Shown: one piece after another, positions 3,883 through 58,899 of the stretch | How the letters are laid out: the number at the start of each line of letters is the position of its first letter | Position numbering within the stretch: position 1 is the stretch's first letter | From: Rhodothermales bacterium | GTDB lineage: Bacteria; Bacteroidota; Rhodothermia; Rhodothermales; UBA10348 | DNA: 64,000 nt | Reading direction: 5' to 3' | Assembly: GCA_965247125.1 (NCBI GenBank) | Contig: CBDFGO010000002.1 | Coordinates: 1,062,379-1,126,378, forward strand | The notes under the pieces: generated by a model | The model's input: the letters and a program-made list of their open reading frames with translations, nothing else | What the model was told of the DNA's origin: nothing | The model's database searches: none | Program-made: the position numbers and the translations under genes

Positions 3883-5187
3883 CTATGAGTCACTCCGTGC
3901 TCCCAGGACGCTGAACATTTCAGATTTATAGGCCTCCACACCAGGCTGATCAAACGGATTAATACCAAGCAGGTATCCGCCAATGGAAACGGCGTGTTCA
4001 AAGAAATAGATCAATCTGCCTAGATTTTCTTCCGTGAGACCATCCATCGATATAACATGAACAGGTACGCCTCCTGATAAATGAGCTCTGATCGTGCCCA
4101 GGAAGGCCGCATGTGCAATGCTCTTCAATGATTTTCCGGCGACATAATCCAGACCGTCCAGCGAACTGTTTTCGTCTGGAACTTCAATGGAGGGGCGATC
4201 GGCGCCAATCATCAAAAAAGTCTCGATGATATTGCGCCGACCGGATTGCAGGTACTGGCCGAGAGAATGGAGATCACCGGAATACGTACAGGTCGTGGGG
4301 AAAAGCCCCTTCAAATTTTTGCCCTCACTTTCGGCAAAGAGCTGCTGCCACCAGGACCCGATTCCACCCAGTTTCGGCTCGAAGACGGATAATATTTCGG
4401 CAGTGTATCCCGATTCATGCAGCGCGTAGCGACTCATGGCGTAGGCTACGGCAGGGTTTTCTTCGGGTGAAGTGAGTTCCGCCATCATGGCTACGGATCC
4501 GTAGAAAAGCGACCGGACGTCGAACCCCGCCACAGCGATGGGAAAGAGTCCCGCGGGGGTGAGAACAGAGAAGCGACCGCCGATGTCTGCCGGAATGTCG
4601 AACGTCCTGTACTCTTTTTGCTGGGCCAGTTCTCTAAGCGAACCCCCATCCGGATCTGTCGTGACGATGATGCGGCGGTTGCAATCGACGAAGTGGTCCT
4701 CCATCCACTTCCTGATAATGCGAAAAGCTATGGCAGGCTCAAGGGTGGATCCGCTTTTCGAAATAACGTTTACGAAGACAGACTTGCCCTCCAGCGAGTC
4801 CAGAAGTTCTTGCAGATAAGACCCCGAAAGATGGTGCCCGGCGAAAACGATCCGAGGGGCCGTGTGTGCATCGTCGTCACCAACATGATCTAAAGAGAAA
4901 TACGGAGAAAGTGCACGGATGACGGCTTTCGCACCCAGATAAGATCCGCCGATCCCAATACAAATCAACACGTCTGCACGTTCGCGAATCTCACGACTTA
5001 CAGTGGTGATTTCTTCCAGCAAAGCGTCGTTTGGATCCTGCAAAATGCGTCGCCAACCGAGCCATTCACTTCCCGCACCGGTTCCCTCCAGGAGGGCCCG
5101 GTGAGCAGCATACGCGCGAAGAGTCAACCCGCTTCCTACATGAGAATCGATGAATGCATCTGAAGGGCTGAAGTCAAACTCTATCAT
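3883..5187 (-). CDS. pgi: Glucose-6-phosphate isomerase (short bacterial type)
   Basis: 434 aa. Motifs seen: ICIGIGGSYLGAKAV, GGRFSVLTPAGLFPIAVAG, QQLFAESEGK. Confidence 0.88.
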   Translation of the reverse strand: MIEFDFSPSDAFIDSHVGSGLTLRAYAAHRALLEGTGAGSEWLGWRRILQDPNDALLEEITTVSREIRERADVLICIGIGGSYLGAKAVIRALSPYFSLDHVGDDDAHTAPRIVFAGHHLSGSYLQELLDSLEGKSVFVNVISKSGSTLEPAIAFRIIRKWMEDHFVDCNRRIIVTTDPDGGSLRELAQQKEYRTFDIPADIGGRFSVLTPAGLFPIAVAGFDVRSLFYGSVAMMAELTSPEENPAVAYAMSRYALHESGYTAEILSVFEPKLGGIGSWWQQLFAESEGKNLKGLFPTTCTYSGDLHSLGQYLQSGRRNIIETFLMIGADRPSIEVPDENSSLDGLDYVAGKSLKSIAHAAFLGTIRAHLSGGVPVHVISMDGLTEENLGRLIYFFEHAVSIGGYLLGINPFDQPGVEAYKSEMFSVLGARSDS

Positions 5188-7439: not shown

Positions 7440-8561
7440 TCACGCCAGGGGAAGAAGGACGCTCACGACGATTCCAGTGTCTGAATCGGACGTGACACCA
7501 ATCGAACCGCCATGGGCCAGGGTGACCAGGCGTGCGTAAGAGGTACCGAGGCCGGTTCCCTCTTGTCCTGATTTCGTAGAATTGAACTTGTCGAAGAAAG
7601 TGACCAGGCGCTCAGCTGTAAGAGGCACAACACCGTTCTGGACTCTGATGAGAACCGATTCACCAGCGGGTTCACAAACCACGTCGACCCGGCGTTCACT
7701 CTCACCCAGCCCCGCGACATGTTCTGCCGCGTTCTTGATCAGGTTCTTGAAAACACCCGGTAAAAAACGAACATCAGCCATGATACTCGAGCCGAGACCC
7801 TCGCCCGAGAGGGTGATTGTAACGAGGTCTTGATGGGAGACCGACACGTCCCGGACCACATCTTTCAGAAGATCCTGAAGGGTCACCTCTCTCACTTCCA
7901 GCTGATGGACCCCTCGCTCGATATCCTGCAGTTTTTTCATCTCATCCAGCATGGATTTCATCGAAGACGCTCCGGACTCGATGGCACCAAGCCAGCCAAG
8001 CTGTCGCTCGTCGAGTTGGTCAGCAAGCTGGGTGCGAAGCAGATCTGTGTAGCCGGCGATGGGGTTGATCACATTATTAAGTTCGTGTCTCAGGAAGGCA
8101 TCTTGTTCGCGATGAAGTCGCTCGATCTGGCCCAGAGCGCTAGAGAGCTCGTCCACACGGACGGCAAGTTCGCGCCGCAAGCGGTTCATAGTGACGTGAG
8201 TGCCAACCCGTTCCAACAACTCGGCTGAACGGAACGGCTTGGTGACGTAGTCGACCGCTCCCAGCTCAAATCCTCTCACAACATCTTCGGTCTCAACTTT
8301 GGCAGTCAGAAATATGACAGGTATTTCCGCAGTAGCGGCATTGGCCTTGAGGCGCTTGCAGACCTCAAAACCGTCCATGTCCGGCATAATAACGTCGAGC
8401 AGTACCAGATCCGGCGCGACACGGTCCAACGAATCGAGCGCCGCTTGTCCGCTGGACGCAGCGTTGACGTCGTAACCACCGTCACGAAGCATTCCGCCCA
8501 GTACCTGAATGTTTTCAGGTGTGTCGTCCACGATGAGGATGTGTCCACTTCGTTCGCTCAT
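7440..8561 (-). CDS. Receiver-first hybrid protein: REC domain, coiled coil, then HisKA-like/HATPase_c kinase core
   Basis: The REC domain reads ILIVDDTPEN...LLDVIMPDMDGFE...FLTAK...VDYVTKPF. H-box FLRHELNNVINPIAGY, N-box NLIKNAAEH, G-box GTGLGTSYA. Confidence 0.8.
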   Translation of the reverse strand: MSERSGHILIVDDTPENIQVLGGMLRDGGYDVNAASSGQAALDSLDRVAPDLVLLDVIMPDMDGFEVCKRLKANAATAEIPVIFLTAKVETEDVVRGFELGAVDYVTKPFRSAELLERVGTHVTMNRLRRELAVRVDELSSALGQIERLHREQDAFLRHELNNVINPIAGYTDLLRTQLADQLDERQLGWLGAIESGASSMKSMLDEMKKLQDIERGVHQLEVREVTLQDLLKDVVRDVSVSHQDLVTITLSGEGLGSSIMADVRFLPGVFKNLIKNAAEHVAGLGESERRVDVVCEPAGESVLIRVQNGVVPLTAERLVTFFDKFNSTKSGQEGTGLGTSYARLVTLAHGGSIGVTSDSDTGIVVSVLLPLA

Positions 8562-8564
8562 GAA

Positions 8565-11500
8565 TCATTCTGATAGGAATAGTGGAAATAGATCAAATAG
8601 AGGAAAGAGCTTATCCATCTCGAAATGATGCGCGGAGAGCCGAACTGATTTTCCCCACGAAACGAGAGGACCGAACTCATATTTGGCGCCGAGGGCCTCC
8701 ATCTCTGACGCAAAATTCTCAATTTCATTCACCGTCTGGCGGAAGGCCAGATCCTTCCACCGCTCCCGTTCAGAATCCAATAGCGCCAGGAGTTCCGAAT
8801 TTTCGGTTCGTCGAGGCCTTCCGGGCCTGGTGTCCGCGTCCAGTTCTTGCGAGGTGGTGACGGCGACAATTTCGTTGGGGAGATGCGCGACCAGCGCTTC
8901 GACGAGCTTGTTCTGAGTAAGTGGCTTGGCGATAAATGCATCGGTCATCTGTCTGAATTGTTCGGCTTCCTTTCCTAAAACCGACGCCGAAAATCCAACC
9001 ACGGGGAAAGGAGGGCGCTTGCCGGGAGATATCAACTCCTGGACGACGGCGATCCCGTTCATACCGGGCATGTGAAGATCGAGAAGCAGCAAATCAATTT
9101 TCTCCCTTTCAATAATCGCCATGGCCTCTTCTCCACTTGACGCACCAATGAACCGAAGCCCGACCATATCGAGCATCTCTTGGAGTAGCTCGTGACTTTC
9201 TTCCGCATCGTCTGCGAGGAGCACGGAGGAACCGAAAAACCGAATATTCTCGGCCGTGATGGATTCACCGGACCGATCCAACTCTGCCGACTGATATGAA
9301 ACGTGGGGGATAGTAGCCTTGAAGAGGGATCCTTTGTCGACTTCTGACTCAAGGGAGATCGATCCACCCATCAGTTCGATGAGCTTCGTGGTGATCGCCA
9401 GGCCAAGTCCAGTTCCTCCATATTCTGAATGCGACGGACTCTGTGCCTGATCGAACGCTCCGAATATGTGCGCCTGGTCTTCTGCTGATATGCCGATTCC
9501 GGAGTCTTCGACACTGAATGAAAGTGTTACGTGGCCATCGTCATCTCCCTCGAGCCGGTCGGCACGAACGTCCAGGATGACGCCCCCCTCTGAGGTAAAC
9601 TTGATGGCGTTTCCTACGAGATTAATGAGTATCTGGCGCACTCTGGCTTCATCGAGAAGGACCCGCTCAGGAATGGATTCATGTGCGAGAGAAGTGAAGA
9701 CAATTCCTTTCTTGTTTGCTCGCTCGGCGAAGATGAGTGGCATTTCGTTCACGAGCCGCCGAAGATCCAGGGTGCCCGCGACAATATCCAGTTTGCCGGC
9801 CTCCACTTTAGAAAGGTCGAGAATGTCATCGATCAGGGTGAGAAGCGACCGGCTCGATGTCTGGATGTGCTGGATGTATTTGAGGAAGCCCTTATCCTTT
9901 ATTTTTCTCGACAACAGATCGGTATAACCGATGATGGCGTTCATCGGAGTCCGAATTTCATGACTCATGTTTGCAAGAAAGCGGCTTTTTGCGCTCGTCG
10001 CGTCGTCAGCTTCCCTTGCAAAACTAGAGGCTCTCTCGCTGCTTTCTTCAAGCGCTTCATTGGAACGTGTCAAGAGGCGCCGCTGTCGCTCAACTTCTCG
10101 TCGCTGAATTTCCAGCTCACGATTCTGGGTAGCCATCTGCGTTGACTGTTCCTCGATTCGGGCCTTGCTCTTTCGAAGTTCTTCGTGACGTATTTCCAGC
10201 TGACGCTGCTGGAGTGTCATCTCCCGGTTCGTTGTTTCCAACTGTTGGTTGTGTGCCGCTAACAGGCGGCGTTGCTCTTCTACTTCGCCAGTCTGAGCTT
10301 TCAGACTTGCCCCCAGTCGCATGTTACTCTCCTCGAGCTGTCGGTTGTGAAACCGTGCTAAACTTTTTCCGGCGAAGAACACCGACACAACAAAAAGGAT
10401 AATGTAGATGCTGAAGGCCAGCAGCGATCGGAACCAGGGTGGACGAATAGTGACCACCGCCCTGGCGGTCGGTCCAATACGCCCGGTACCCGAAAGGGCG
10501 CGAACCTCAAAGGCGTAGGAGTTTTCGATCAGTCCTGAAAATCGAGCTGTACGGTCGAGGCTCCAGTCTGACCACTCATTTGTAAGACCCACCATTCTGA
10601 ACTGATACTCCACTTCGGAATAGGCATCGAAAAACGGTGAGGAGAAAGAAAAAAGAAGGTCGTTCTCGGAAAATGCCAGATCAAGATCAGGGGGGCGAAG
10701 GCCGCTCGGACCCATACCGCCAAACGGAGTCATCGAGGCGGATTCAATGGATCGGACATACGTGAGGGGTGATCGTGGCGGTCGCCGTTCTGCCTGATCC
10801 CCGAACCGAAAGAGTCCCTGATCGGTTGCAAACCAACATCCGGGACCCGGCCCAGACGGATCACAGATCATCTGATGGATATGTGCGCCGGAGAGCTGAT
10901 GCAGCCCTTCGATGACGTCGATCCGCCTTCCCAAGGCCTCTTCAGGAGGAATAACGCCGGCGAAATCGCGGGTAACGATCCAGATGGCACCATTTAGTGA
11001 CTGATGCAGATATCTGATATCGGTAAGCACTGACTCACCAGACAACCCAAGGCCGTTTCCTGGTGCAAATCTGGCGGACTCATTGTCGTAGGAGTAAAGT
11101 CCTGAGCGGGCGTAGGCGATGACGCGCTCCCCATCCGCGAGCGGCGATGAGCGTCCGACGGGCAATCCATGCCGCTCATCAAACAGTTGAATGGTTGTCT
11201 CCACCGAATCAGAAACGGCCCATTCGATTCGTGCGAGTCCTCCCGGTGACACACCGGCCCACAGTACACAACTGGATTCTTCAGAGAGAGCATGCACATG
11301 AACACGGCTATCCTCCAGCCGCCCCGTGATTTCCCATCGAGACAACACTGGATTGTAAGCGAGCCGCGTCAGGCTGCCGGCGTGTCCCAGATAGACCAGA
11401 CCTCGATCAGCATTGGAAGACAATACAGCCTGAATGGGCTGTTCCGCGTCAATTCGGTAGCTCAAGAACGAATTGTTTTGAGGGAGAACGACCACTTCGG

Positions 11501-12704
11501 GACCACTGACGAAGAGTAGATCGCCGCGCAGTGAAAGAAGGGAGGCTACGGGAATATCGTGATTGGCAACGGGCTCGAATCGCGCCGGAATGCGGTCTTC
11601 GCTGGCGCCCACCGTGAACAATCCGCTGTCGGTCCCGACGAACAATTGCTCGCCGCTGTAAACAACGGCCCGTGCAGGGCCAAAAATCCCAGCTGAAACG
11701 GGAGGCCTGGAGACCGTGCTTCCGAGGTCCACGCGGGCAATACCGTCCTCGGTTGCGAGCCAGAGCCTCCCTCGATCATCTTCAGCGATTCCGTTAATTG
11801 CGCCGAGCGGGAGGCCGTCACGGAAGTCCAGAAATCTGGTTTGATAGGTGGAGGTGTTCACCAGAGCCAGGCCGCCGCGATCGAGCCCCAGGGCCAGTGT
11901 GCCGCTTGAAAGCAGCGCAGAGGATACAATAGTTCTTCCCTGAAGCGCGGAGCGGGCCTCAGTATCCCACCTGGAAAGAGACCCTCTTGAGTAGGAATAA
12001 AATTCGCCGCTTGCAGAAACGAGAAGAGAGGTAGAATCCGATAGTGGCGAGGCGTGAATCAGCTCGTCTCTGGCGAACACCGCTCCCGCTTCCACGGCCG
12101 CAAACCCCCTGGCTTCGTAGCGGGTCAGACCCCTTCCCCAGAGACTGACAAAGAGGGTGTCCTGGTTGGTGAAGGCAGATTGTATGGGTGCGTTGGGCGT
12201 GAGAGCCCGGATGGAATCGCGTGTTTTAAGAAAAATGCGCCCAGGAGTGACGAAGAACACGGCGGATCGGACGGAGATGATCTGTTCGACACCATCAAAA
12301 CTTCCAGTTTCTTCTGTTGATGAGGCAAAAAGAGATTGAAAAGACGGGCGGAAGAGTGAGTCTGAGGCCAGTACGCCGATATCGCCGGTGGCGCCGATCA
12401 GGATAGTGCCGTCATCTGAGAGCGCTAGCCGAGTCGGAGTGCGCCCGCGTGGCAACGAGATGAATTTCCAGACACTGCCATCGTATTCGAGCAGTCCATC
12501 CTGGTTCGCGACATACAACAACCCTTCATCGGAGAGGGTCAGGTCGAGATTATTCGGATTGTGCCCGTACTCGAATGGTCTATATCGATGGACGACGGGG
12601 TAGCCCTGGGCTGATTGTGCGTGGACAGGCCCGCTCGGCCAGCCGCCGATCATCACAAAAAGGCAGGCGATAATCGTTATGTGGAGGCTCCTGGCCGTCG
12701 TCAA
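8565..12704 (-). CDS. Hybrid sensor histidine kinase with a large periplasmic propeller/Y_Y_Y-type sensor region, TM helix, long coiled coil, HisKA, HATPase_c and REC
   Basis: 1379 aa with signal peptide MTTARSLHITIIACLFVMIGGWPSGPVHAQ. About 750 aa of beta-propeller-like repeats end in a Y_Y_Y-like segment (YAFEVRAL). TM helix LLAFSIYIILFVVSVFFAG, then a Q/E/R-rich coiled coil. H-box MSHEIRTPMNAIIGY, then NLVGNAIKFT, GGTGLGLAI, and REC LLLDLHMPGMNG. Confidence 0.85.
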   Translation of the reverse strand: MTTARSLHITIIACLFVMIGGWPSGPVHAQSAQGYPVVHRYRPFEYGHNPNNLDLTLSDEGLLYVANQDGLLEYDGSVWKFISLPRGRTPTRLALSDDGTILIGATGDIGVLASDSLFRPSFQSLFASSTEETGSFDGVEQIISVRSAVFFVTPGRIFLKTRDSIRALTPNAPIQSAFTNQDTLFVSLWGRGLTRYEARGFAAVEAGAVFARDELIHASPLSDSTSLLVSASGEFYSYSRGSLSRWDTEARSALQGRTIVSSALLSSGTLALGLDRGGLALVNTSTYQTRFLDFRDGLPLGAINGIAEDDRGRLWLATEDGIARVDLGSTVSRPPVSAGIFGPARAVVYSGEQLFVGTDSGLFTVGASEDRIPARFEPVANHDIPVASLLSLRGDLLFVSGPEVVVLPQNNSFLSYRIDAEQPIQAVLSSNADRGLVYLGHAGSLTRLAYNPVLSRWEITGRLEDSRVHVHALSEESSCVLWAGVSPGGLARIEWAVSDSVETTIQLFDERHGLPVGRSSPLADGERVIAYARSGLYSYDNESARFAPGNGLGLSGESVLTDIRYLHQSLNGAIWIVTRDFAGVIPPEEALGRRIDVIEGLHQLSGAHIHQMICDPSGPGPGCWFATDQGLFRFGDQAERRPPRSPLTYVRSIESASMTPFGGMGPSGLRPPDLDLAFSENDLLFSFSSPFFDAYSEVEYQFRMVGLTNEWSDWSLDRTARFSGLIENSYAFEVRALSGTGRIGPTARAVVTIRPPWFRSLLAFSIYIILFVVSVFFAGKSLARFHNRQLEESNMRLGASLKAQTGEVEEQRRLLAAHNQQLETTNREMTLQQRQLEIRHEELRKSKARIEEQSTQMATQNRELEIQRREVERQRRLLTRSNEALEESSERASSFAREADDATSAKSRFLANMSHEIRTPMNAIIGYTDLLSRKIKDKGFLKYIQHIQTSSRSLLTLIDDILDLSKVEAGKLDIVAGTLDLRRLVNEMPLIFAERANKKGIVFTSLAHESIPERVLLDEARVRQILINLVGNAIKFTSEGGVILDVRADRLEGDDDGHVTLSFSVEDSGIGISAEDQAHIFGAFDQAQSPSHSEYGGTGLGLAITTKLIELMGGSISLESEVDKGSLFKATIPHVSYQSAELDRSGESITAENIRFFGSSVLLADDAEESHELLQEMLDMVGLRFIGASSGEEAMAIIEREKIDLLLLDLHMPGMNGIAVVQELISPGKRPPFPVVGFSASVLGKEAEQFRQMTDAFIAKPLTQNKLVEALVAHLPNEIVAVTTSQELDADTRPGRPRRTENSELLALLDSERERWKDLAFRQTVNEIENFASEMEALGAKYEFGPLVSWGKSVRLSAHHFEMDKLFPLFDLFPLFLSE

Positions 12705-12768
12705 GATGTTGTCTGCCGAGTGTCTGGGTACCAGGGGATATTATACGGAGAAATCATTCCTGCTCCGG

Positions 12769-12793
12769 GTAGAAAACTGGGTGTAGAAAACTG
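12769..12793. promoter_or_regulatory. Direct repeat GTAGAAAACTG x2 (14-bp period) in the divergent kinase / NtrC-like promoter region
   Basis: Perfect 11-mers at 12769-12779 and 12783-12793. They lie between start codons 12704 (minus) and 12875 (plus). Confidence 0.25.
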
Positions 12794-12874
12794 CGTCTCG
12801 CCGGCGGCCCGCCCTTACCCTCATCGGGTGCGGACGCTATATTCTCCATAGGAATCAATCAACATTGTGCCTTC

Positions 12875-14245
12875 ATGCCACGCCTTTTGATCGTCGATGA
12901 CGAGCCTGGAATCAGGCGGACCCTCAAAGACCTGATGAGTATGCAGGGATATGAGGTGGAAGACGCTGAAAATGGGGCAGTGGCCCTCGAGAAACTCGAG
13001 TCTGGCCATTTTGATCTGGTCCTGTCTGACATTCAGATGCCCAAAACGGATGGAATGGAACTGCTGAAGGCTTCGAAGGCATCCAATCCAGACCTTCCGT
13101 TCATCATGTTGACTGCACACGCGAGCATCGAACGTGCGGTCGAGGCGATAAAGATCGGTGCGTACGATTTCGTCCCCAAACCTCCCAATCTGCAGCATTT
13201 ACTGGTGACGGTCAGCAACGCACTCGCCACAAAGAAGCTCAAGAAGGAGCACACGCGCATGAAGGCGCGGCTAGAAAAGATCGATGGAGATATCGAGCCA
13301 CTTCTGGGCGAGAGTTCGGCGATGGCGCGAATAAACAAGATGCTGGCAAAAGCCGCGCCGAGCCAGGCTCGCATCCTGGTAACGGGAGAAGCGGGATCAG
13401 GAAAGGAGCTCATTGCCCAATGGGTTCACCAACTGTCAAACCGGAAGGATGGGCCGTTCGTCGCTGTGAATTGCGCTGCAATCCCGTCCGAGTTGATCGA
13501 GAGCGAGCTGTTTGGCCACGAAAAAGGCGCGTTTACCGGAGCGCACAAACAGCACATTGGTTGCTTTGAACAGGCCGACAGCGGGACTCTTTTCCTGGAC
13601 GAAGTGGGCGACATGAGCACTTCGGCGCAGGCGAAAGTCCTTCGCGTCCTCCAGGAAAACCGGGTTCGTCGAGTTGGTGCAGACCGAGATGTAGAGATCG
13701 ATGTTCGCGTCATGTGTGCGACCAACAAAGATCTAGAGGCGGCCATCCTGAATGGGGAGTTCCGAGATGACCTGTTCCACAGACTGGCAGTAATAGAAAT
13801 AAAGTCTCCTTCCCTGAGAGAACGACCGGAAAATATTCCGACTCTCGCCAATTATTTCTGCGAAAAGCTGAGTCGGCGCAACGCGGTCCCCGACAAGCAT
13901 TTTTCGAAGAGTGCGCTGAAGCTGCTGAGCACCTATCCCTGGCGGGGAAATGTCCGCGAACTACGCAATGCAGTAGAACGATTGATTGTGCTTAGTGAAG
14001 AGAACGAAATTTCCGAAATGGATGTGGATTTGTTTACCAATCCAGGCTCCGCACCCCAGGACTCGATAAGCTATCTGGTCGATCAGCACCCCATGATCAG
14101 CTCATTCAGAGATGCAGCTGAAGAGGCCTTTCTGCGCAAAAAGCTGGTGGAGTTCGATGGAAATATCAGCAAGATGAGCGAATCCATTGAGTTGCAGCGA
14201 TCCAATATCTACGCGAAACTCAAAAAATTCGGGATCAAGGACTGA
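12875..14245 (+). CDS. Sigma-54-dependent response regulator (NtrC family: REC, AAA+ sigma-54 interaction domain, Fis-type HTH)
   Basis: REC domain MPRLLIVDDEPG...DLVLSDIQMPKTDG. Walker A GEAGSGKE, sigma-54 contact loop GAFTGA (EKGAFTGA), RELRN motif, and C-terminal HTH NISKMSESIELQRSNIYAKLKKFGI. Confidence 0.9.
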   Translation: MPRLLIVDDEPGIRRTLKDLMSMQGYEVEDAENGAVALEKLESGHFDLVLSDIQMPKTDGMELLKASKASNPDLPFIMLTAHASIERAVEAIKIGAYDFVPKPPNLQHLLVTVSNALATKKLKKEHTRMKARLEKIDGDIEPLLGESSAMARINKMLAKAAPSQARILVTGEAGSGKELIAQWVHQLSNRKDGPFVAVNCAAIPSELIESELFGHEKGAFTGAHKQHIGCFEQADSGTLFLDEVGDMSTSAQAKVLRVLQENRVRRVGADRDVEIDVRVMCATNKDLEAAILNGEFRDDLFHRLAVIEIKSPSLRERPENIPTLANYFCEKLSRRNAVPDKHFSKSALKLLSTYPWRGNVRELRNAVERLIVLSEENEISEMDVDLFTNPGSAPQDSISYLVDQHPMISSFRDAAEEAFLRKKLVEFDGNISKMSESIELQRSNIYAKLKKFGIKD

Positions 14246-14363
14246 TCGAACGCCGAGCTTGAGAAGTGCGGGTATCGGGAGGATTGAGAGGTCCCGGTTA
14301 CTGTGCTGGTAATGTCAGAATAAAACGACTTCCTTCGCGGAAGGCGGCATCGACGCAAATAGA

Positions 14364-15260
14364 TCACCCCAATATCTCAGCGGCCATCTTGCAGAATGCC
14401 AGGCCGAGCCCGACACCAGCCCTCACCCCGGTTTCTCTCGATTCCACCTGATAAAACGTGTCAAAAATACGCTCGTGCAGAGCGGTCGGAATACCTTCGC
14501 CATTGTCTTCTACTACGAAGATGATGGAGTCACTCGTCGCGGATACGTCAAGGAGAACACGATCGGCAGAATGAGCATATTTGAATGCGTTTGACAGCAG
14601 ATTCGCAAGCATTCTTTCCAACAGAGAGAGATCCACCCGTATCGATTGAGCGGCTTCTGCCACCGCACTTGTCATCTCAAAACCGTTCTCGGCGGCTGTT
14701 TCCTGATACTGCGCAGACAGCGTAGCGACAAGCGAGGGGATATCGACAAGTTCCGGCTTCTGGGTCATCTCACCAGACTCCATTCGGGATAGGTCCAGTA
14801 TGCTTCGAATCATTGATTCCATCGAGGCCGCGGCTGCGCTGATATGCTTCAGTCGGTCGCGAAGGGCTTCCTCATCGCCTTCTGAATGTGCACCCATCTG
14901 AAGCATCTGCGTGTTCGTCATCACGACGGAGAGCGGATTTCCCAGATCATGAACAATCATGTGTGTCAGGGCATCACGGCTGGATTCTGCCTTTTTCAGA
15001 TCCTCGTAATTCATCTCGATCGTTTTGAGAAGCTCTCGCTCTCGATCCCGAAGGGCGTTTTTCTCAAGACTGGAGCTAAGCCTGGCTTGAAGAATGGTTT
15101 GGTTGAAGGGCTTCGCCAGATAATCAGTTGCTCCTAGCTCAATCGATCGAACAACACTCTCCATATCATCCCTGCCCGATATCATGATGATGGGAATGTG
15201 ACGGAGTTCATCGTCATCGGAAAGGCGCTCGAGCATATCGAGGCCCGTCATCACCGGCAT
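14364..15260 (-). CDS. Receiver-first histidine kinase (REC-HisKA-HATPase_c). The listed ORF starts inside the REC domain; the coding frame really extends to ~15440.
   Basis: H-box MIVHDLGNPLS, N-box NLLSNAFKYA, DNGEGI, GVGLGLAFC. Upstream of the Met at 15260 the same frame encodes KHYILVVDDNDLNRELL...AILLDID, the missing first half of REC. That stretch has no ATG, GTG or TTG. Confidence 0.8.
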   Translation of the reverse strand: MPVMTGLDMLERLSDDDELRHIPIIMISGRDDMESVVRSIELGATDYLAKPFNQTILQARLSSSLEKNALRDRERELLKTIEMNYEDLKKAESSRDALTHMIVHDLGNPLSVVMTNTQMLQMGAHSEGDEEALRDRLKHISAAAASMESMIRSILDLSRMESGEMTQKPELVDIPSLVATLSAQYQETAAENGFEMTSAVAEAAQSIRVDLSLLERMLANLLSNAFKYAHSADRVLLDVSATSDSIIFVVEDNGEGIPTALHERIFDTFYQVESRETGVRAGVGLGLAFCKMAAEILG

Positions 15261-15493
15261 ATCGATATCGAGGAGAATCGCGTCCCGTCTTCTTGTCTGA
15301 GCGCTTTCGAGCCCAGCCCGCCCATCGCGCTCAGAGGAAACTTCGTGGCCCAGAATGTCCAGAAATTCGACCAGCAGCTCCCGATTCAGGTCGTTGTCAT
15401 CAACGACAAGGATGTAGTGTTTTGATGCCGCAGTTTCGATGGTTGTTCGGGATAGGTGGAAGATCCTCGGTGTGCCGACATAATAGCAAAATC

Positions 15494-15511
15494 ATCTTCA
15501 GGTCTGAAGAT
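15494..15511. promoter_or_regulatory. Perfect 8-bp inverted repeat ATCTTCAG-GT-CTGAAGAT (candidate activator or operator site)
   Basis: Read directly at 15494-15511. It lies ~170 bp upstream of the sigma-54-like promoter at 15678 and immediately upstream of the kinase reading frame. Confidence 0.25.
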
Positions 15512-15677
15512 CGGCACGTCGCGCGAAAGGGTCGGCTCTGTTCTGGTACCGAAACAGCCCGGATGATTGAACGGGGGTTGTAGCCGCGAACCAAGATCGA
15601 GCGAAAAGCCGCCAGCTGGCTTCAGTGCAGCGACTTCTCGCTTGATAAGCCATGTTGAAACGGACAGAAACATTGGC

Positions 15678-15693
15678 TGGCACGGCAATTGAC
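15678..15693 (+). promoter_or_regulatory. Sigma-54-type (-24/-12) promoter candidate, TGGCACGGCAATTGAC
   Basis: TGGCAC-N5-TTGA at correct spacing against the consensus TGGCAC-N5-TTGC, with one mismatch in the -12 GC. It sits 46 nt upstream of ATG 15739, and an NtrC-type activator is encoded nearby. Confidence 0.4.
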
Positions 15694-15738
15694 ACCTATG
15701 GATGGCGTGAAGAATATCAGCAATGAAGAGGCAGCGAC

Positions 15739-15954
15739 ATGCATCCTATCCTAAAAAGACTAACCATCGCCGATTGGGCTGAGCCCGACGAGCGGTTCAA
15801 TTTTGTCACCGATCTCAGGGACCTGGGCCTCCGGGACGCTTACCGGGCTTTTGAAATCCATAGGGCAAGCGCGTGCGCGGTCTATCAGTTGGCAGGGCCG
15901 GTGTTTGAGACCAATAAAATGAACAAACGAGAGCAAGCCGCCTGGATTCTATAG
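15739..15954 (+). CDS. Hypothetical small protein (71 aa)
   Basis: An ATG preceded by the SD-like GAAGAGG (15725-15731). The ORF is bracketed by a sigma-54-like promoter and a strong intrinsic terminator. I recognise no family. Confidence 0.5.
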   Translation: MHPILKRLTIADWAEPDERFNFVTDLRDLGLRDAYRAFEIHRASACAVYQLAGPVFETNKMNKREQAAWIL

Positions 15955-16015
15955 GTACAGTGTTCTGCTGCCGAGTGCGAAGTGTTTCGTTGGCGCAACA
16001 ATCGGAAGGATTTTG

Positions 16016-16050
16016 GAGGCCGACCCCAAGGGGTCGGCCTCTTTCATTTT
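16016..16050 (+). terminator. Rho-independent terminator
   Basis: 12-bp GC-rich perfect stem GAGGCCGACCCC / GGGGTCGGCCTC (16016-16041) followed by TTTCATTTT. Confidence 0.8.
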
Positions 16051-16128
16051 GGCCAAAAAGCCCAATTATGACCCCATATCGCTGATCTAGGTCGGTAATG
16101 TCGAACACCCGCCCAAACCGGTTCGAGC

Positions 16129-16144
16129 TGGCATCAAGATTGAT
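16129..16144 (+). promoter_or_regulatory. Second sigma-54-type promoter candidate, TGGCATCAAGATTGAT
   Basis: TGGCAT-N5-TTGA at the same spacing and with the same -12 variant as the site at 15678. It sits 63 nt upstream of the sigma-factor start at 16207. Confidence 0.35.
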
Positions 16145-16206
16145 ATCGAAGGGGTGAAGCCTGGGGACACTACGCCCGAGGACGCTCTAACCAGATACTC
16201 ACCTTC

Positions 16207-16974
16207 ATGTCCGATCAACGAAACAGCGACAACTGCGCACGTGCCTACAAAAAGAACCCGACTCAACAGAACAGGGACCGGGTGGTCTTCGCGACTGAAC
16301 CGGTCATCAGGTCAATCATTTCGCGCGTTACCCGCCCTGCCGACGATCTTGCTCGGCCGCATGAACTATTCAACGTGGGTGTGATCGCGGTCCTGCAGGC
16401 GCTCGATCTTTTCGAGCCTGGGGGTGGCGCCCGTTTTGTGACGTTCGCGTTCCCACGAATTCGGGGCGAGATCATCGATTTCCTCCGCCGTCTCGATCCC
16501 TTACCCCGGCGACGCAGGGCAAAAGTGGCGCGAGCATGGAAAACACAGGATCGGCTTGCTCAAGTTCGCGGACGCGAACCGGACGAGTTTCAGGTTGCCG
16601 AAGCACTGAATGTAGAAATCGGGGAATACCGCATGACACGCGTTGATACGTTTCGTCGCCATCAAGCGTACCTGTTCGCTCAATTCAACGACGATGAACG
16701 AACGAGCCTGATCGATATTCTCGCAGACACCGACGCAAGAGAGAGATTCGACACGAGGGAATGGGAAGACGTCAGAGAACACCTTTCCGATCTTTCGAAG
16801 GAATTGACAGACCGAGACCGAACCATCCTGGACCTTTGCTTCGGCGAGGATCTGACGCTTAGAGAAATCGGTCTCTTTGTCGGACTGTCTGAGGCTCGGG
16901 TTTCACAACTCAGGATGAGTGCACTGAAAAAACTGTCAGTCCGAGTGGATCAAGGTTTGCGACGTGTCGCTTGA
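16207..16974 (+). CDS. Sigma-70-family alternative sigma factor, group 3 (FliA/WhiG/SigB-like)
   Basis: 255 aa. Region 2 reads LFNVGVIAVLQALDLFEPGGGARFVTFAFPRIRGEIIDFLR. Region 3 is present. Region 4 HTH reads LTLREIGLFVGLSEARVSQLRMSALKKL. Confidence 0.75.
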   Translation: MSDQRNSDNCARAYKKNPTQQNRDRVVFATEPVIRSIISRVTRPADDLARPHELFNVGVIAVLQALDLFEPGGGARFVTFAFPRIRGEIIDFLRRLDPLPRRRRAKVARAWKTQDRLAQVRGREPDEFQVAEALNVEIGEYRMTRVDTFRRHQAYLFAQFNDDERTSLIDILADTDARERFDTREWEDVREHLSDLSKELTDRDRTILDLCFGEDLTLREIGLFVGLSEARVSQLRMSALKKLSVRVDQGLRRVA

Positions 16975-16978
16975 GGAC

Positions 16979-17554
16979 TCAGTTGGTCGCTTCTAGGTAC
17001 GATCCAGAAGAGACACTGAAGAACACAGTCTGTACAACCTTGTGTTCTTTCCCGGTCTGTGAATCGAGTAGAGAAATCGTCACCTGGCGACTTTGAAAAG
17101 GAACTGCGACCGCACTTTCACCGGCTACAAATTCATACGTGAGTACACGACCATTTTCTAGACCCCGAGAAATCTGGGTGACCATGCTGCTGTTGCCACC
17201 AGTACCAGTCAACCTGATGCGCCCGTGGCTCTGGCCAAGACTGGTATCGCCCGTAATCCACAACTCGGTTCCTTCGGGCATTTCGAAGTCGAGCTCAGCC
17301 GTGAGTATCACATTCTCAATATTGGTCGTGAGATTGTAGAATGTCGATCCATCGGTCAGGGAGATGCTTTCGCGATCGCTCGTCTTGTCGACGATTAGAG
17401 GCGCGGGATTTCCAGAGACGGCTAAAACGGCGATCCGGCCAATAGAGATGGTGACGGTGTGGGATGCTGTTTCCTGAAATTCCTGAGCGTGAACACACGC
17501 GGGTCTGATCAACAGGACCAATAAGGGACAGATAAAAAAGCGAGAAACACTCAT
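16979..17554 (-). CDS. Hypothetical secreted protein (~191 aa, beta-rich)
   Basis: The likely start ATG 17554 gives the signal peptide MSVSRFFICPLLVLLIRPACVHAQE. I recognise no family. The longer ORF to 17623 is probably an upstream extension. Confidence 0.55.
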   Translation of the reverse strand: MSVSRFFICPLLVLLIRPACVHAQEFQETASHTVTISIGRIAVLAVSGNPAPLIVDKTSDRESISLTDGSTFYNLTTNIENVILTAELDFEMPEGTELWITGDTSLGQSHGRIRLTGTGGNSSMVTQISRGLENGRVLTYEFVAGESAVAVPFQSRQVTISLLDSQTGKEHKVVQTVFFSVSSGSYLEATN

Positions 17555-17756
17555 GAGGCTAAAACTCGTCAGGCGGCAAGGGATAAGCGAGCCACACTTA
17601 GTGTATACGACGAAAAACTCCAATTTAGTATTCGGTTTTGGTTTCGGGTGATTAAATTCGGGATCCGCCGGAGATAGCTACGCTGTTTCTCGTAGTTGCA
17701 AGGGTAGAAAAACGCAATTTTCTTAAGTGTGGGGGGAGGTCGAAAGGCCAAAAGGG

Positions 17757-19601
17757 CTATTTCTGCAGGATAACGGCCTGTGTTTGTATTCTACCGCTGG
17801 AAGGGAGGAGTCGCACGAAATACATGCCGGAGGGAAGATTTGAACCGTCTATTTGAAGACTATTGGCAGTATTCGTCGTGGCATAACCATCGAAAAGAGT
17901 TTGCCGCAATCTGCCAAGCGAATCCCATAGCTCGACGCGCACCGGTTGCGCCTGAGTGACGTCGAAATTAATTCGGGACTGGGGATTGAACGGATTCGGA
18001 TAGGCTGGGTGAAGCGTGGTGGTTTCAACGGGTAAATAATCAACTTCGTCTTCAACACCCACCGACGCAGTTTTCTGGAAGATGCAGATATCTCCGGCGA
18101 AATTGCAACCTATGGGTTCCCCGAAGTTTCCGTCGTGGTTACCCTGGATGTTGATGCGGATCGTCTCACCGGGCTTGATACAGTCGTTGTCCGCGACCGG
18201 GGTCACGCGGTAATTCCCGCCGACCAGCACCCAGTTCGAGGGCCAAATATTGTTGACCGTCATTCCGTTGACCAATTTGAACTCAAGCGCCCAGCCACGG
18301 ATGATGCTTTCACCAGTATTGGTGATGTCGATGAAGCCGACATAAGTCGACGGTTGAACGCTGATGAGTCGAAAATCGATCTCAGGAAGCCGTGCGGCTC
18401 CGGGTACCGGATTGTCGCATGAAACGGTCGGATCTCCACCGGTCCCTCCCCCAGTATCGGGAGGATCGACAGGTGTGCCGGTTCCAGTTCCGTCCGAGTC
18501 CTGTACGTCTTGCTGGATCTCGAATTTCAGGAGACAGGGGATGGAGTTTATCGTGCACCCTTCAGGAGCTTCAATCTTACCGCCCCATGTACCCTTGATC
18601 ACAAAGGTGTACTCACTCTGGGGCATGATGCGTCCCCTTCCGAAAGCGGGACGAATCGTGTAAAGACCACTCGAGCGATCAACAATCACTCCCTCGGCTT
18701 CTGTGATGGTGTTACCCATGTTGAATCGAAGGGTCCAGGAAGACAGTTCGTTCATGGTCGGATTTTCAATCCGGATGTATCCTTCCCAGGTAGTACCCGT
18801 GACCTCTCCCATCTTCAGATACACGTTCAATCCGGGAGTTTCGACCAGGCGGTCGGGAGGCTGAAACGAGCAGGAGCTGCCATTCAGCTTACAGTTGGTG
18901 GGAAGGGACGGAATTCCCGTGTGTACGCCGCTAAATGGGATAAGCACAAAATCGTGGGGGCGAACGATGTCGGTGTGAGCATTTCCGTAGAGCTGATAGT
19001 CGGTCCCGGACCGGCTCCAGACCACGTTCTCGATGTCAACGATCTGCGACGGTGTCGAAAACTGCAGGCCCCACGGTGCCGAGAACACTCGATCAGTGGG
19101 ATTCTGGACTACGAAAAAGCCATTGTACGTGGTGAAATCATACTCCTCAATCCAGGCTGATACGATCATCTCTGATGACTGGGCGACGAGCGGCACATGA
19201 TCGGGATGGGGCTCAACCGTGCAGGCTCCGCCATTGAAAAAACAGTTTCTGGGGGGTTCAGGAATGCCGTCATAGGCGATTCCGGTGATCGTGAACCACA
19301 CGACTTCTCCAGGCTCAATGCGATGGGTCCAGCCCTGTCCGGTCACTGTGAACACGTCCTGAAACTCACTCCAGTTGACGTGTTCAATATTGGTGACGTG
19401 CTGATCGACCCGAAAAGTCATCGTCCAGTTCGACAGGGGCACACTCGTCATGTTCGTGAGCATGACATGGGCCGTGTATTGCCCCTCGTGGACGGTATCG
19501 ACGAGATATACGACGCGAACTTCCTGTGCGAGAGACACTCTCGGCACAAGAATCATAAAAAGAAAAAGCGTAAAAACGGCCCAACTACGGCGCATACTCA
19601 A
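17757..19601 (-). CDS. Secreted protein with four CBM2-like beta-sandwich repeats and a T9SS C-terminal sorting domain
   Basis: Signal peptide MSMRRSWAVFTLFLFMILVPRVSLAQE. Four ~100-aa repeats each show the pattern x-N-x-T...(S/N)W(T/A)L-x-F...W...(P)GE...C-x-(F/L/I)N(G/S)xxC. A Gly/Thr/Pro linker follows. The tail AYPNPFNPQSRINFDV...GMYFVRL is a Por_Secre_tail signature. Confidence 0.65.
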   Translation of the reverse strand: MSMRRSWAVFTLFLFMILVPRVSLAQEVRVVYLVDTVHEGQYTAHVMLTNMTSVPLSNWTMTFRVDQHVTNIEHVNWSEFQDVFTVTGQGWTHRIEPGEVVWFTITGIAYDGIPEPPRNCFFNGGACTVEPHPDHVPLVAQSSEMIVSAWIEEYDFTTYNGFFVVQNPTDRVFSAPWGLQFSTPSQIVDIENVVWSRSGTDYQLYGNAHTDIVRPHDFVLIPFSGVHTGIPSLPTNCKLNGSSCSFQPPDRLVETPGLNVYLKMGEVTGTTWEGYIRIENPTMNELSSWTLRFNMGNTITEAEGVIVDRSSGLYTIRPAFGRGRIMPQSEYTFVIKGTWGGKIEAPEGCTINSIPCLLKFEIQQDVQDSDGTGTGTPVDPPDTGGGTGGDPTVSCDNPVPGAARLPEIDFRLISVQPSTYVGFIDITNTGESIIRGWALEFKLVNGMTVNNIWPSNWVLVGGNYRVTPVADNDCIKPGETIRINIQGNHDGNFGEPIGCNFAGDICIFQKTASVGVEDEVDYLPVETTTLHPAYPNPFNPQSRINFDVTQAQPVRVELWDSLGRLRQTLFDGYATTNTANSLQIDGSNLPSGMYFVRLLPSSGRIQTQAVILQK

Positions 19602-19699
19602 CCCGGAAGCGTTAAAACTCCCTGTCAGAATGAGGAGGACGGTGAAGAAAGGCGGTGTATCGTCCGCAGTTGAGAACGGAATTAAACTCGTTTTTTGCG

Positions 19700-19779
19700 C
19701 TAATGGAGCCTGATCCTAGTGGAGCCTGATCCTAGTGAAGCCTGATCCTAGTGAAGCCTGATCCTAGTGAAGCCTGATC
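19700..19779. repeat. Tandem repeat, 5 x 16 bp (CTAGTGAAGCCTGATC on the plus strand; GATCAGGCTTCACTAG on the minus strand)
   Basis: Copies at 19700, 19716, 19732, 19748 and 19764. The three copies nearest the gene are identical, and the outer two differ by 1-2 nt. The first 3 nt of the copy at 19764 are the stop codon of the gene at 19764-22907. Confidence 0.95.
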
Positions 19780-26738: not shown

Positions 26739-27383
26739 TTGTATGTTGTCTCCGTTCCAAAAGATAGACGGAGTCTCGATATTTCGAGCAGAAATATTCA
26801 GAAATACGACGTGAAAAAGGCCGCGAATCTTACCGGAGTACTTTTACTCGGCGGACGAAGTCGTCGATTCGGATCTGACAAAACTCGAGCTTCACTCGGT
26901 GGCACGCCGCTCGCCGGGCACGCGCACCGTGCGCTTTCCGAAGTGTGCTCGCGGGTGCTCCTCTCCGTCTCGAAGCACTCTTCGCAGTCTTCACTTGGCG
27001 AATTGAGCGGCCGTCTTCTGTTCGATGATGTGCCCGACCGGGGGCCTCTGGGGGGCATCTTGACGGCTTTCTCCGTTTCGACGGAGCCCTACCTGGTGAT
27101 TCTGGCGGGAGATCTTCCCCGAATCAGGTCCGCTACATTATCCCGCATGGTCATGCGGTTCGAATCTGGCGTTCTTTTTGCTCGAAATGAGCAATCTGGT
27201 CGTGTCCAACCGTTGTGCGGGATCTGGAGCCACGAAGTCACCGGGCAACTTGCAAAGTACCTGGAATCCGGACACCGATCGGTTCTGGGATTTCTGGATG
27301 AGGTCGAGACACAGGCGTTTGACCTGTCCCCGGAGGAGTTGATAAATATAAATCGTCCTGGCGACCTGGAAGATGTTCGATAA
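26739..27383 (+). CDS. mobA: Molybdenum cofactor guanylyltransferase MobA
   Basis: Motifs GVLLLGGRSRRFGSDK, DDVPDRGPLGGILTA and VILAGDLPRI. The real start may be the GTG near 26811 (VKKAANLTGV...). Confidence 0.75.
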   Translation: MYVVSVPKDRRSLDISSRNIQKYDVKKAANLTGVLLLGGRSRRFGSDKTRASLGGTPLAGHAHRALSEVCSRVLLSVSKHSSQSSLGELSGRLLFDDVPDRGPLGGILTAFSVSTEPYLVILAGDLPRIRSATLSRMVMRFESGVLFARNEQSGRVQPLCGIWSHEVTGQLAKYLESGHRSVLGFLDEVETQAFDLSPEELININRPGDLEDVR

Positions 27384-27476
27384 AGCTTCCGGACCTCTAT
27401 TATACGTTGTTGATTGTTCTGAGAATGGAGCCACAAGAATTCCTCACGCCAAGCCAGCAGTTTCCCCCATCATTCG

Positions 27477-29126: not shown

Positions 29127-29130
29127 CTCG

Positions 29131-32118: not shown

Positions 32119-32195
32119 GAAGATCGTGATTAAGGGTTCCACAGATCGATTCTCCTGGAGATGTCCAAAGATGTAATGACAAGTACTGACAAGCA

Positions 32196-33131: not shown

Positions 33132-33140
33132 CATTCTCCA

Positions 33141-34880: not shown

Positions 34881-34903
34881 AAGCCTGCATTGGAGGTCAA
34901 AAG
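34870..34903. promoter_or_regulatory. Direct repeat TTGGAGGTCAAAAG x2 (20-bp period) upstream of, or overlapping, the SulP start
   Basis: Perfect 14-mers at 34870-34883 and 34890-34903. They lie 20-53 nt upstream of ATG 34850 on the minus strand. Confidence 0.3.
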
Positions 34904-34970
34904 ATAGTCATTCGGGTAGCGCCAGCCCGATCCTGTCCCCTTCAGCTACAGATCGCGTGGATTTCGATAC

Positions 34971-36422: not shown

Positions 36423-36468
36423 TTTCGGTGGGCCTGTTTACTTACGAATAATTCTGGTGGTTTTCCGG

Positions 36469-36909: not shown

Positions 36910-36917
36910 TGTAACTC

Positions 36918-52994: not shown

Positions 52995-53027
52995 ATGCTC
53001 ATTTCAAGCAAGGCGGGAGGCCAATAG

Positions 53028-55945: not shown

Positions 55946-55957
55946 CGCGACCCCCTC

Positions 55958-58869: not shown

Positions 58870-58899
58870 ATTGCAGGTCGTCGGGCAACACGCGGCGTG

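Follow-up and report, generated by a model that had tools for sequence, protein, structure and literature searches.

In textbook accounts, flagellar assembly is governed by sigma-54 to sigma-28 cascades. A cluster of regulatory genes in the genome of an uncultured Rhodothermales bacterium raises the question of whether such a cascade also operates in a locus that does not look flagellar, and which genes it would control there. The cluster lies in a stretch of 64,000 nt (hereafter the window) of Rhodothermales bacterium (UBA10348), assembly GCA_965247125.1, contig CBDFGO010000002.1, positions 1,062,379–1,126,378 of the forward strand. The initial annotation had proposed that several sensor kinases feed an NtrC-type activator, which together with sigma-54 turns on a mini-gene and an alternative sigma factor. 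In this study, the large open reading frames (ORFs) of the window were listed and scanned against Pfam and NCBIfam, and genomic contexts were collected for approximately 15 members of the sigma factor family (relatives' loci are labelled L001, L009, L110, etc.). The locus probably encodes a two-tier transcription cascade that is conserved in, and specific to, a lineage of uncultured Rhodothermales.

Regulatory genes of the locus

Five regulatory genes had been claimed within 7440–16974, and the ORF list, the Pfam and NCBIfam scans and the sequence confirmed all of them:

7440–8561, minus strand: kinase with REC, HisKA and HATPase_c domains (HK1), 373 aa (Pfam)
8565–12704, minus strand: hybrid sensor kinase, 1379 aa (Pfam, NCBIfam, sequence)
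12875–14245, plus strand: NtrC-family enhancer-binding protein (the activator), 456 aa, with REC domain, AAA+ sigma-54 interaction domain and weak Fis-type helix-turn-helix (HTH)
14364–15440, minus strand: second REC-HisKA-HATPase_c kinase (HK2), 358 codons, with ATC as first codon and a premature TGA at its end
16207–16974, plus strand: sigma-28-family sigma factor, FliA/WhiG-like, 255 aa, of a distinct Rhodothermales clade

The description of the activator as an NtrC-family protein with an intact GAFTGA loop held. It showed Response_reg (104.8 bits, residues 5–112, with the phospho-acceptor Asp52 within DLVLSDIQMP), Sigma54_activat (233 bits) and AAA_lid_14, and both the Walker A motif (GEAGSGKE) and GAFTGA are intact. 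Its scores stay under every named-equivalog cut-off in NCBIfam (AtoC, 423.8 vs. 714; NtrX, 420 vs. 600; NtrC, 418 vs. 558.6), and by these scores it is a member of the NtrC family and not a named orthologue. The activators of the relatives are 74–87% identical and of equal length (456 aa). The absence of flagellar genes from the window was likewise borne out, as the scans detected no flagellar domain in any large ORF of the 64 kb, and no flagellar, chemotaxis or flgM gene was found within 10 kb on either side of the locus in approximately 15 genomes.

Palindrome–promoter pairs and their conservation

The two −24/−12 promoter candidates that had been proposed ahead of the 71-aa ORF and the sigma factor gene were both found, 47 and 64 nt before the respective gene, and each lies downstream of an 18-bp palindrome:

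15539–15556: palindrome UAS1, TGTTCTGGTACCGAAACA, 139 nt upstream of P1
15678–15692, plus strand: sigma-54-type promoter P1, TGGCACGGCAATTGA, ahead of the mini-gene; at the same position in L108 and L110
15739–15954, plus strand: mini-gene for a conserved 71-aa protein, assessed by its homologues and by the ratio of nonsynonymous to synonymous substitutions (dN/dS)
15983–16000: palindrome UAS3, TGTTTCGTTGGCGCAACA, 146 nt upstream of P3; crossover point of a deletion
16015–16042, plus strand: intrinsic terminator, 12-bp stem and T run, between UAS3 and P3
16129–16143, plus strand: sigma-54-type promoter P3, TGGCATCAAGATTGA, ahead of the sigma factor gene

P1 and P3, with the forms TGGCAC/TGGCAT-N5-TTGA, are the only two matches to TGGCAY-N5-TTGM in the 64 kb, both on the plus strand; this count is weak by itself, since at least two matches occurred in 14 of 100 shuffles. 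The palindrome has the ideal form TGTTTCG-N4-CGAAACA, and UAS1 is the sole exact match to TGTTY-N8-RAACA in the window. Pairs of palindrome and promoter 60–170 nt apart occurred exactly twice in the window, compared to a mean of 0.05 in Markov simulations (P for at least two, approximately 0.003), a statistic that is not fully independent because the patterns were partly derived from the window sites.

The independent test was provided by the relatives. Exact palindrome matches were confined there to the intergenic regions upstream of three sigma-54-type promoters, namely P1 before the mini-gene, P2 before a gene for a protein of approximately 150 aa and P3 before the sigma factor gene. Every locus covering the DNA upstream of the sigma factor gene had a palindrome 81–156 nt upstream of (T/C/A)GGCA(C/T)-N5-TTGA, with this element 51–132 nt before the sigma start codon; across all promoters of the relatives, the distance between palindrome and promoter was 59–156 nt. 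The GG and TTG of the element are conserved in approximately 15 genomes. Promoter and palindrome thus persist at orthologous positions in approximately 15 relatives with otherwise diverged intergenic DNA, which lends weight to the earlier proposal that the activator would feed sigma-54-type promoters of the mini-gene and the sigma factor gene. We infer that the palindrome is its binding site.

The terminator was also found in L001, L009 and L011, where the stems differ yet stay complementary. It is predicted to close the three-gene operon downstream of P2 in the relatives, and the mini-gene transcript in the window. Because it stands between UAS3 and P3, the sigma factor gene would have its own promoter, without read-through from the operon.

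Could the same DNA be read without any sigma-54/enhancer pair, with the palindrome as the operator of another dimeric regulator and the genes read from sigma-70-type promoters? We consider this very improbable. The −12 element does lack its canonical C, the promoter pattern alone is not rare and the HTH match of the activator is weak; against this, GG-N10-TTG is kept in approximately 15 diverged genomes, at a set distance before the start codons and always downstream of the palindrome, an activator with intact GAFTGA is encoded next door in every genome, and no sigma-70-like promoter was called on the plus strand upstream of the mini-gene or the sigma factor gene.

Gene order in relatives and loss of an operon

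In the relatives, the genes are ordered hybrid kinase (minus), activator (plus), HK2 (minus), mini-gene (plus), three genes for proteins of approximately 150, 270 and 1000 aa (all plus) and sigma factor (plus). These are followed by genes for a secreted protein of approximately 190 aa (191 aa in the window; minus), a type IX secretion system (T9SS) cargo protein with CBM2 domains (minus), a sortilin-like T9SS cargo protein (minus) and an M14 peptidase (plus). The order hybrid kinase, activator, HK2 and sigma factor is kept down to 45% sigma identity. Two Rhodothermales metagenome-assembled genomes (MAGs) carry a shorter version (L013, 1–7100; L015, 4100–11200), in which activator, HK2 and sigma factor are directly adjacent and accompanied by the sortilin-like gene and the M14 peptidase. 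These two loci keep the palindrome and P3 and lack the mini-gene, the 150/270/1000-aa operon, the 190-aa gene and the CBM2 gene. Since they keep palindrome and P3 without the other genes, the conserved core appears to comprise the kinase(s), the activator, the sigma-54 promoter and the sigma factor gene, and the joint absence of the six genes suggests that these form one functional module.

P2 and the three-gene operon, which the initial annotation had missed, are present in all close relatives, while the window has neither P2 nor the 150-aa, 270-aa and 1000-aa genes. The products of the operon are predicted to be exported or to belong to the cell envelope. One is a secreted protein of approximately 130 aa (mature), the second is Fn3/Ig-like, and the third is a multi-Ig/CarboxypepD_reg protein that ends in a LysM domain. 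The relatives' 150-aa and 270-aa proteins matched nothing above threshold in Pfam or NCBIfam, and no named family was found for any of the three. A common origin of the 150-aa and 191-aa proteins received a profile–profile probability of 8.9%.

The history of this difference could be read from an alignment with L110 (a 3.8-Mb contig), in which window positions 12001–15955 and 15980–18000 correspond, at 90–92% nucleotide identity, to segments 4503 bp apart. The junction is as follows:

15956–15982: deletion scar; the left part resembles the DNA before UAS2 of the relatives, and approximately 4.5 kb are missing compared to L110

The junction itself is TGTTTCG, the first half-site common to UAS2 and UAS3, and from 15983 rightward UAS3, the terminator and P3 all survived the deletion. 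Two other close relatives, L108 and L009, keep the 150-aa and 1000-aa genes. As judged from these alignments, the deletion is recent and lineage-specific, runs between two enhancer palindromes, and removed one output while leaving the others intact.

Separately, several genes intact in the window appear in two or three pieces in L109/L110 (4712–9798 and 10740–14624), which are Mb-scale "ctg" assemblies of the close relative. This affects the sortilin-like, CBM2, sigma factor and 1000-aa genes, and in L110 also the activator gene; the splits are likely assembly indel errors, not real pseudogenes.

Sensor kinases

The hybrid kinase consists of a signal peptide, a periplasmic propeller-type sensor of approximately 730 aa, a transmembrane segment, a coiled coil, HisKA, HATPase_c and REC domains and a 108-aa tail, and its orthologues measure 1376–1392 aa in all relatives. 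Of the propeller/Y_Y_Y sensor described earlier, the propeller part stood, with Reg_prop barely over the Pfam cut-off (21.9 vs. 20.4 bits); at E < 1e-3 the window protein showed no Y_Y_Y, to which its orthologues had only weak precomputed matches. HK1 starts 3 nt past the hybrid-kinase stop and is probably co-transcribed with it. Orthologues of HK1 (57–66% identity) directly follow those of the hybrid kinase in L028 and L029, and one of the two metagenome contigs with this order continues with the GntR, MoeA, PGI and Usp neighbours of the window.

An Hpt domain in the hybrid-kinase tail was searched for and not found, nor did the tail match any other family. With no Hpt domain detected by the Pfam/NCBIfam scans and targeted tail searches in any of the three kinases or the tail, a classical His-Asp-His-Asp relay is not supported, although an Hpt protein may be encoded elsewhere. 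The multi-kinase phosphorelay of the initial annotation accordingly stays a proposal, as the order of phosphotransfer cannot be read from sequence either.

HK2 has the REC, HisKA and HATPase_c domains ascribed to it, but the atypical features at both of its ends had been overlooked. Its frame offers no ATG, GTG or TTG ahead of the REC domain and starts with ATC (15438–15440, minus strand), which aligns to the Met of L005 and is ATG in more distant relatives. The same ATC is found in L108 and L110, that is, in three genomes at 85–92% nucleotide identity, and the first 49 codons showed a dN/dS of 0.18. As it is common to three genomes and the N-terminal codons are under purifying selection, the ATC looks like a tolerated, rare non-canonical start rather than a fresh lesion. 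Classification of HK2 as a pseudogene for its missing start was rejected as the only reading on the same grounds. At the other end, a window-specific TGA (14364–14366) replaces a Gly conserved in all relatives (GGx in L110), 22 codons short of the ancestral stop, and the ATP-binding domain therefore lacks its last 22 residues in this genome:

14298–14363, minus strand: C-terminal remnant of HK2, the in-frame ancestral last 21 codons (SICVDAAFREGSRFILTLPAQ) and stop past the premature TGA

Recoding of this TGA as Gly was rejected, since TGA is an ordinary stop in the same genome (e.g., in the activator gene). Upstream of HK2, a sigma-70-like promoter match (15480–15508, minus strand; TTCAGA-17-TATTAT with upstream TG) lies approximately 30 nt from UAS1, and activator binding there could feed back on HK2 transcription.

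Loss of the P2 operon and truncation of HK2 might together mean that the cascade is idle, a decaying relic whose remaining parts have not yet been degraded. This would account for the deletion of 4.5 kb with P2 and three genes relative to a genome at 90–92% nucleotide identity, for the GGx-to-TGA change that shortens the ATP-binding domain and for the absence of a canonical HK2 start codon. It is nevertheless improbable, because activator, hybrid kinase, HK1, mini-gene, sigma factor, 191-aa and CBM2 genes are all full length, and because the mini-gene, the sigma factor gene and the 191-aa gene showed dN/dS values of 0.13–0.24 relative to the nearest relatives, indicating purifying selection. 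UAS3, the terminator and P3 remained intact after the deletion, two other species naturally carry activator, HK2 and sigma factor without the operon, and the shared ATC start is not a fresh lesion.

The sigma factor and the 71-aa protein

The group-3 assignment of the sigma factor agreed with its domain content, Sigma70_r2, r3 and r4 in 255 aa with no region 1.1. Against TIGR02479 (FliA_WhiG) it scored 153.8 bits, under the cut-off of 189.6 bits; this was still the best family, followed by SigB/F/G at 102.9. The best PDB matches were WhiG (6pfv), Escherichia coli FliA (6pmi) and Aquifex sigma-28 (1rp3). Between FliA and SigB, the protein is therefore FliA-like, though under the family cut-off. 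Its own family comprises approximately 48 cluster representatives at 45–91% identity, and the next proteins are canonical FliA/WhiG at ≤33%. In a GTDB scan (one genome per species), ten uncultured Rhodothermales/Bacteroidota MAGs carried the clade, and no cultured genus did. By scores and identities, the sigma factor thus is a member of the FliA/WhiG family in a separate clade under the family cut-off. The dN/dS of its gene was 0.17. The literature searched neither describes this clade nor connects sigma-54 with type IX secretion.

The 71-aa protein has homologues at 32–90% identity with a common C-terminus (W-I/L-L) and eight invariant residues (D25, L29, G30, C46, G53, P54, W69, and L71), and its gene showed a dN/dS of 0.13 vs. 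L108. A full HMMER scan of 1.84 billion representatives returned only approximately 10 small homologues. On this comparative evidence, the ORF is a real, lineage-restricted gene. The protein matched no family in Pfam or NCBIfam and had no detectable similarity to FlgM. AlphaFold (AF2) models were of low confidence, with a mean predicted local distance difference test (pLDDT) score of 66.7 from the single sequence and 54.4 with a 10-sequence alignment. That the protein regulates the co-induced sigma factor is a hypothesis only. Three further proteins (P0126, P0127, and P0129), large and repetitive with scattered sub-threshold domain matches, were treated as spurious homologues. In L110 (reverse complement, 4474–4540), the end and stop of the mini-gene are covered by a tandem repeat of approximately three units, each of about 18 nt (CTGGATTCTGTAGG-like); the window has a single unit.

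Candidate targets of the sigma factor

T9SS cargo genes had been reported to come next after the sigma factor gene. Two such genes are indeed there, but a gene for a 191-aa secreted protein intervenes:

16979–17554, minus strand: 191-aa secreted protein, candidate sigma target; ORF listed up to 17623
17600–17628, minus strand: candidate sigma-28-like promoter, CTAAA-N14-CGTATAC, upstream of the 191-aa gene
17757–19601, minus strand: T9SS cargo protein with four CBM2 stretches and Por_Secre_tail, likely ATG at 19595; candidate sigma target
19669–19697, minus strand: second candidate promoter copy, CAAAA-N14-CCGTTC, upstream of the CBM2 gene

The 191-aa protein matched nothing above threshold in Pfam or NCBIfam, and a PDB profile search of its family was also empty. 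Upstream of its gene, C(T/A)AAA-N14-CGTA(C/T) was found in nine relatives in which the DNA has otherwise diverged. A position weight matrix trained only on these sites gave, as its best non-training match, the site upstream of the CBM2 gene in five loci (the window, L012, L006, L007, and L019), with weaker matches in others. The refined matrix had only two matches of at least 13 bits in the 64-kb window, 17600–17628 and 19669–19697, both on the minus strand, and their scores of 28.6 and 27.7 bits compare with a mean maximum of 13.1 and an overall maximum of 19.1 in shuffled windows. This motif, shared by the upstream DNA of a secreted-protein gene and a T9SS cargo gene, had been missed by the initial annotation. 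Its TAAA and CG core recalls sigma-28 promoters.

Other elements accompany these promoters. The candidate promoter of the 190-aa gene is preceded by repeated boxes of the form (C/T)TACG(T/C)A, often as inverted pairs (CTACGAGAAACAGCGTAG in the window), both in the window (approximately 17678–17695, minus strand) and in L001, L003, L005, L012 and L016; an additional regulator may use them as its operator. At 19707–19779, immediately upstream of the CBM2 candidate promoter, a tandem repeat (AGCCTGATCCTAGTGA) with a 16-nt period and 4.6 copies runs across the stop of the sortilin-like T9SS gene; in L009, the closest relative, there is just one copy. The stretch between the CBM2 candidate promoter and the start codon holds a strongly conserved element (19637–19665, minus strand), GGACGA(A)CCGCCGC...TCGTCC, whose hairpin arms are GGACGA/TCGTCC. 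All relatives have it, as far down as 45% sigma identity; its stems hardly vary, which leaves no room for covariation, and it matched no Rfam family.

The sigma factor could instead be an ordinary flagellar FliA with its regulon elsewhere in the genome, in which case the T9SS adjacency would be incidental and CTAAA-N14-CGTAC would belong to another regulator or sigma factor. Flagella are present in cultured Rhodothermales, for example Salinibacter. FliA/WhiG gave the best matches by family and by structure, and the retention of the sigma factor in L013 and L015 without the two candidate target genes also fits a flagellar role. Sigma-54 control of fliA is, moreover, well known in polar flagellates (PMC5655016; PMC6504787). 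The gap between ≥45% identity within the clade and ≤33% outside it, the score under the TIGR02479 cut-off (153.8 vs. 189.6 bits) and the lack of any flagellar gene within 10 kb on either side in approximately 15 genomes or in the 64-kb window make this reading unlikely. The GTDB members of the clade, which are only uncultured Rhodothermales/Bacteroidota MAGs and include no cultured flagellated genera, point the same way.

Proposed cascade

The cascade that we consider probable would proceed in three steps. First, as suggested by its domains, the hybrid kinase would sense a signal from the envelope or from outside the cell, which may be a glycan, as it is for Bacteroides hybrid sensors, and together with HK1 and HK2 would set the phosphorylation of the activator at Asp52. 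Second, with support from comparative sequence analysis, the activator would bind TGTTTCG-N4-CGAAACA 60–155 nt upstream of (T/C)GGCA(C/T)-N5-TTGN, with three outputs: the 71-aa gene (P1), the three-gene operon for exported/Ig-like/LysM proteins (P2) and the gene for the FliA/WhiG-like sigma factor (P3). Third, as the shared motif suggests, the sigma factor would transcribe the genes for the 191-aa protein and the four-CBM2 cargo protein from CTAAA-N14-CGTAC. In this genome, the P2 operon was lost through the UAS2–UAS3 deletion and HK2 is shortened by its premature stop, with P1, the mini-gene, P3, the sigma factor and the candidate targets intact and under purifying selection.

Several points weigh against this cascade. 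In its first step, no Hpt domain was found in any of the three kinases. In its second, both window promoters and the P3 of every relative read TTGA at −12, where TTGC would be canonical; the C-terminal HTH_8 match of the activator is weak (18.6 bits, E = 0.0015, compared to a cut-off of 22 bits); the statistics of the window share sites with the patterns they assess; and no Sigma54 (rpoN) domain was found among the large ORFs of the 64-kb window, the only part of the genome covered by that search. In its third, the spacer of CTAAA-N14-CGTAC is approximately 3 nt shorter than that of TAAA-N15-GCCGATAA and the −10 element differs, and we infer from adjacency only that the sigma factor of the window reads this motif. 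Because L013 and L015 keep the sigma factor without both candidate target genes, it must also have other targets.

Other features of the window

No Rfam family reached its gathering score in the window. Two metabolic gene clusters lie at a distance from the regulatory locus. At 26739–37128, molybdoenzyme and sulfur-related genes encode a MobA-like transferase, a fused 4Fe-4S/NrfD protein, a 1024-aa molybdopterin oxidoreductase, a NarJ-like chaperone, a SulP/STAS transporter, a metallo-beta-lactamase-rhodanese protein and a sulfur-transport protein. At 50266–59772 (minus strand), a seven-gene cluster resembles reductive pyrimidine catabolism, with two dihydropyrimidine-dehydrogenase-like subunits, an aldehyde dehydrogenase, a dihydropyrimidinase-like amidohydrolase, a class-III aminotransferase, a cytosine/uracil-type permease and a carbon-nitrogen hydrolase.

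Comparison with known systems and implications

The closest comparison is with the flagellar hierarchies of Vibrio (FlrA/FlrBC), Pseudomonas and Legionella (FleQ/FleSR) and Campylobacter and Helicobacter (FlgSR), in which, as proposed here, a two-component kinase and an NtrC-type activator act with sigma-54 on early genes. In Vibrio, Pseudomonas and Legionella, sigma-54 also drives the gene for a sigma-28-family factor, and this factor then reads late genes for exported proteins; such is the wiring proposed for this locus (PMC5655016; PMC6504787). A small co-regulated early-tier protein is a further likeness (FlgM there, the 71-aa protein here), although the latter has no detectable FlgM similarity. 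The locus differs in lacking flagellar, chemotaxis and flgM genes (approximately 15 genomes), in a sigma clade under the FliA/WhiG cut-off, in its candidate late promoters (CTAAA-N14-CGTAC rather than TAAA-N15-GCCGATAA) and in its products, the early operon encoding Ig-like/LysM proteins and the candidate late genes a CBM2 T9SS cargo protein and a secreted protein.

The likeness might extend to a checkpoint, such that a flagellum-like hierarchy has been reused for a non-flagellar surface structure. The activator and sigma-54 would jointly switch on an early assembly operon (150-aa secreted subunit, 270-aa Ig-like protein, and 1000-aa Ig/LysM protein), the sigma-28-like factor and the 71-aa protein as a FlgM-like anti-sigma or checkpoint factor, whose release would permit expression of late cargo (the cellulose- or chitin-binding four-CBM2 T9SS protein and the 191-aa secreted protein). 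We regard this as speculative and quite unlikely; if true, this genome would be a natural "early-gene deletion" mutant.

Sigma factors of the FliA/WhiG family outside motility are known from Streptomyces (WhiG; PMC12871210) and Chlamydia (sigma-28; PMC10597470), and the best PDB match of the window protein was WhiG (6pfv). WhiG is controlled post-translationally by the anti-sigma factor RsiG and cyclic di-GMP; here, the activator and sigma-54 appear to exert control at the level of transcription, the locus contains no RsiG-like gene and the phylum is a different one. It has been proposed that the cell exterior is the main object of sigma-54 control (PMC3162934), and the exported products of the locus fit this view.

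The hybrid kinase resembles the hybrid two-component systems of Bacteroides, from the same superphylum, in combining a large periplasmic Reg_prop/Y_Y_Y-type sensor with HisKA, HATPase_c and REC in one polypeptide and in adjoining genes for carbohydrate-binding secreted proteins. It differs in that Y_Y_Y was undetected at the standard threshold in the window protein and in having no C-terminal AraC-type HTH, and its output would therefore pass through separate proteins, the two REC-first kinases and the NtrC-type activator. In the PorXY–SigP system of Porphyromonas gingivalis, a two-component system acts through a dedicated alternative sigma factor on type IX secretion genes. PorX is a REC-PglZ protein and SigP an extracytoplasmic function (ECF) sigma factor; sigma-54 is not involved, and the targets are genes of the T9SS machinery. 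The locus described here differs in its AAA+ activator, its sigma-28-family factor and its candidate targets, which are cargo genes.

Compared with these systems, the locus appears to hold a variant of the sigma-54 to sigma-28 cascade, in non-flagellar-looking surroundings, that is undescribed in the literature searched. The window records a natural rewiring, in which the deletion between two enhancer palindromes cut one output of the regulon and spared the others. The locus yields defined predictions, namely an 18-bp enhancer, three sigma-54 promoters, a second promoter motif and a 71-aa protein. If the proposed cascade is true, the two-tier sigma-54/sigma-28 design would be reusable outside motility, around secreted and type-IX-secreted proteins, and the locus would offer the first regulatory handle on the expression of T9SS cargo in Rhodothermales, a group without a genetic model for this.

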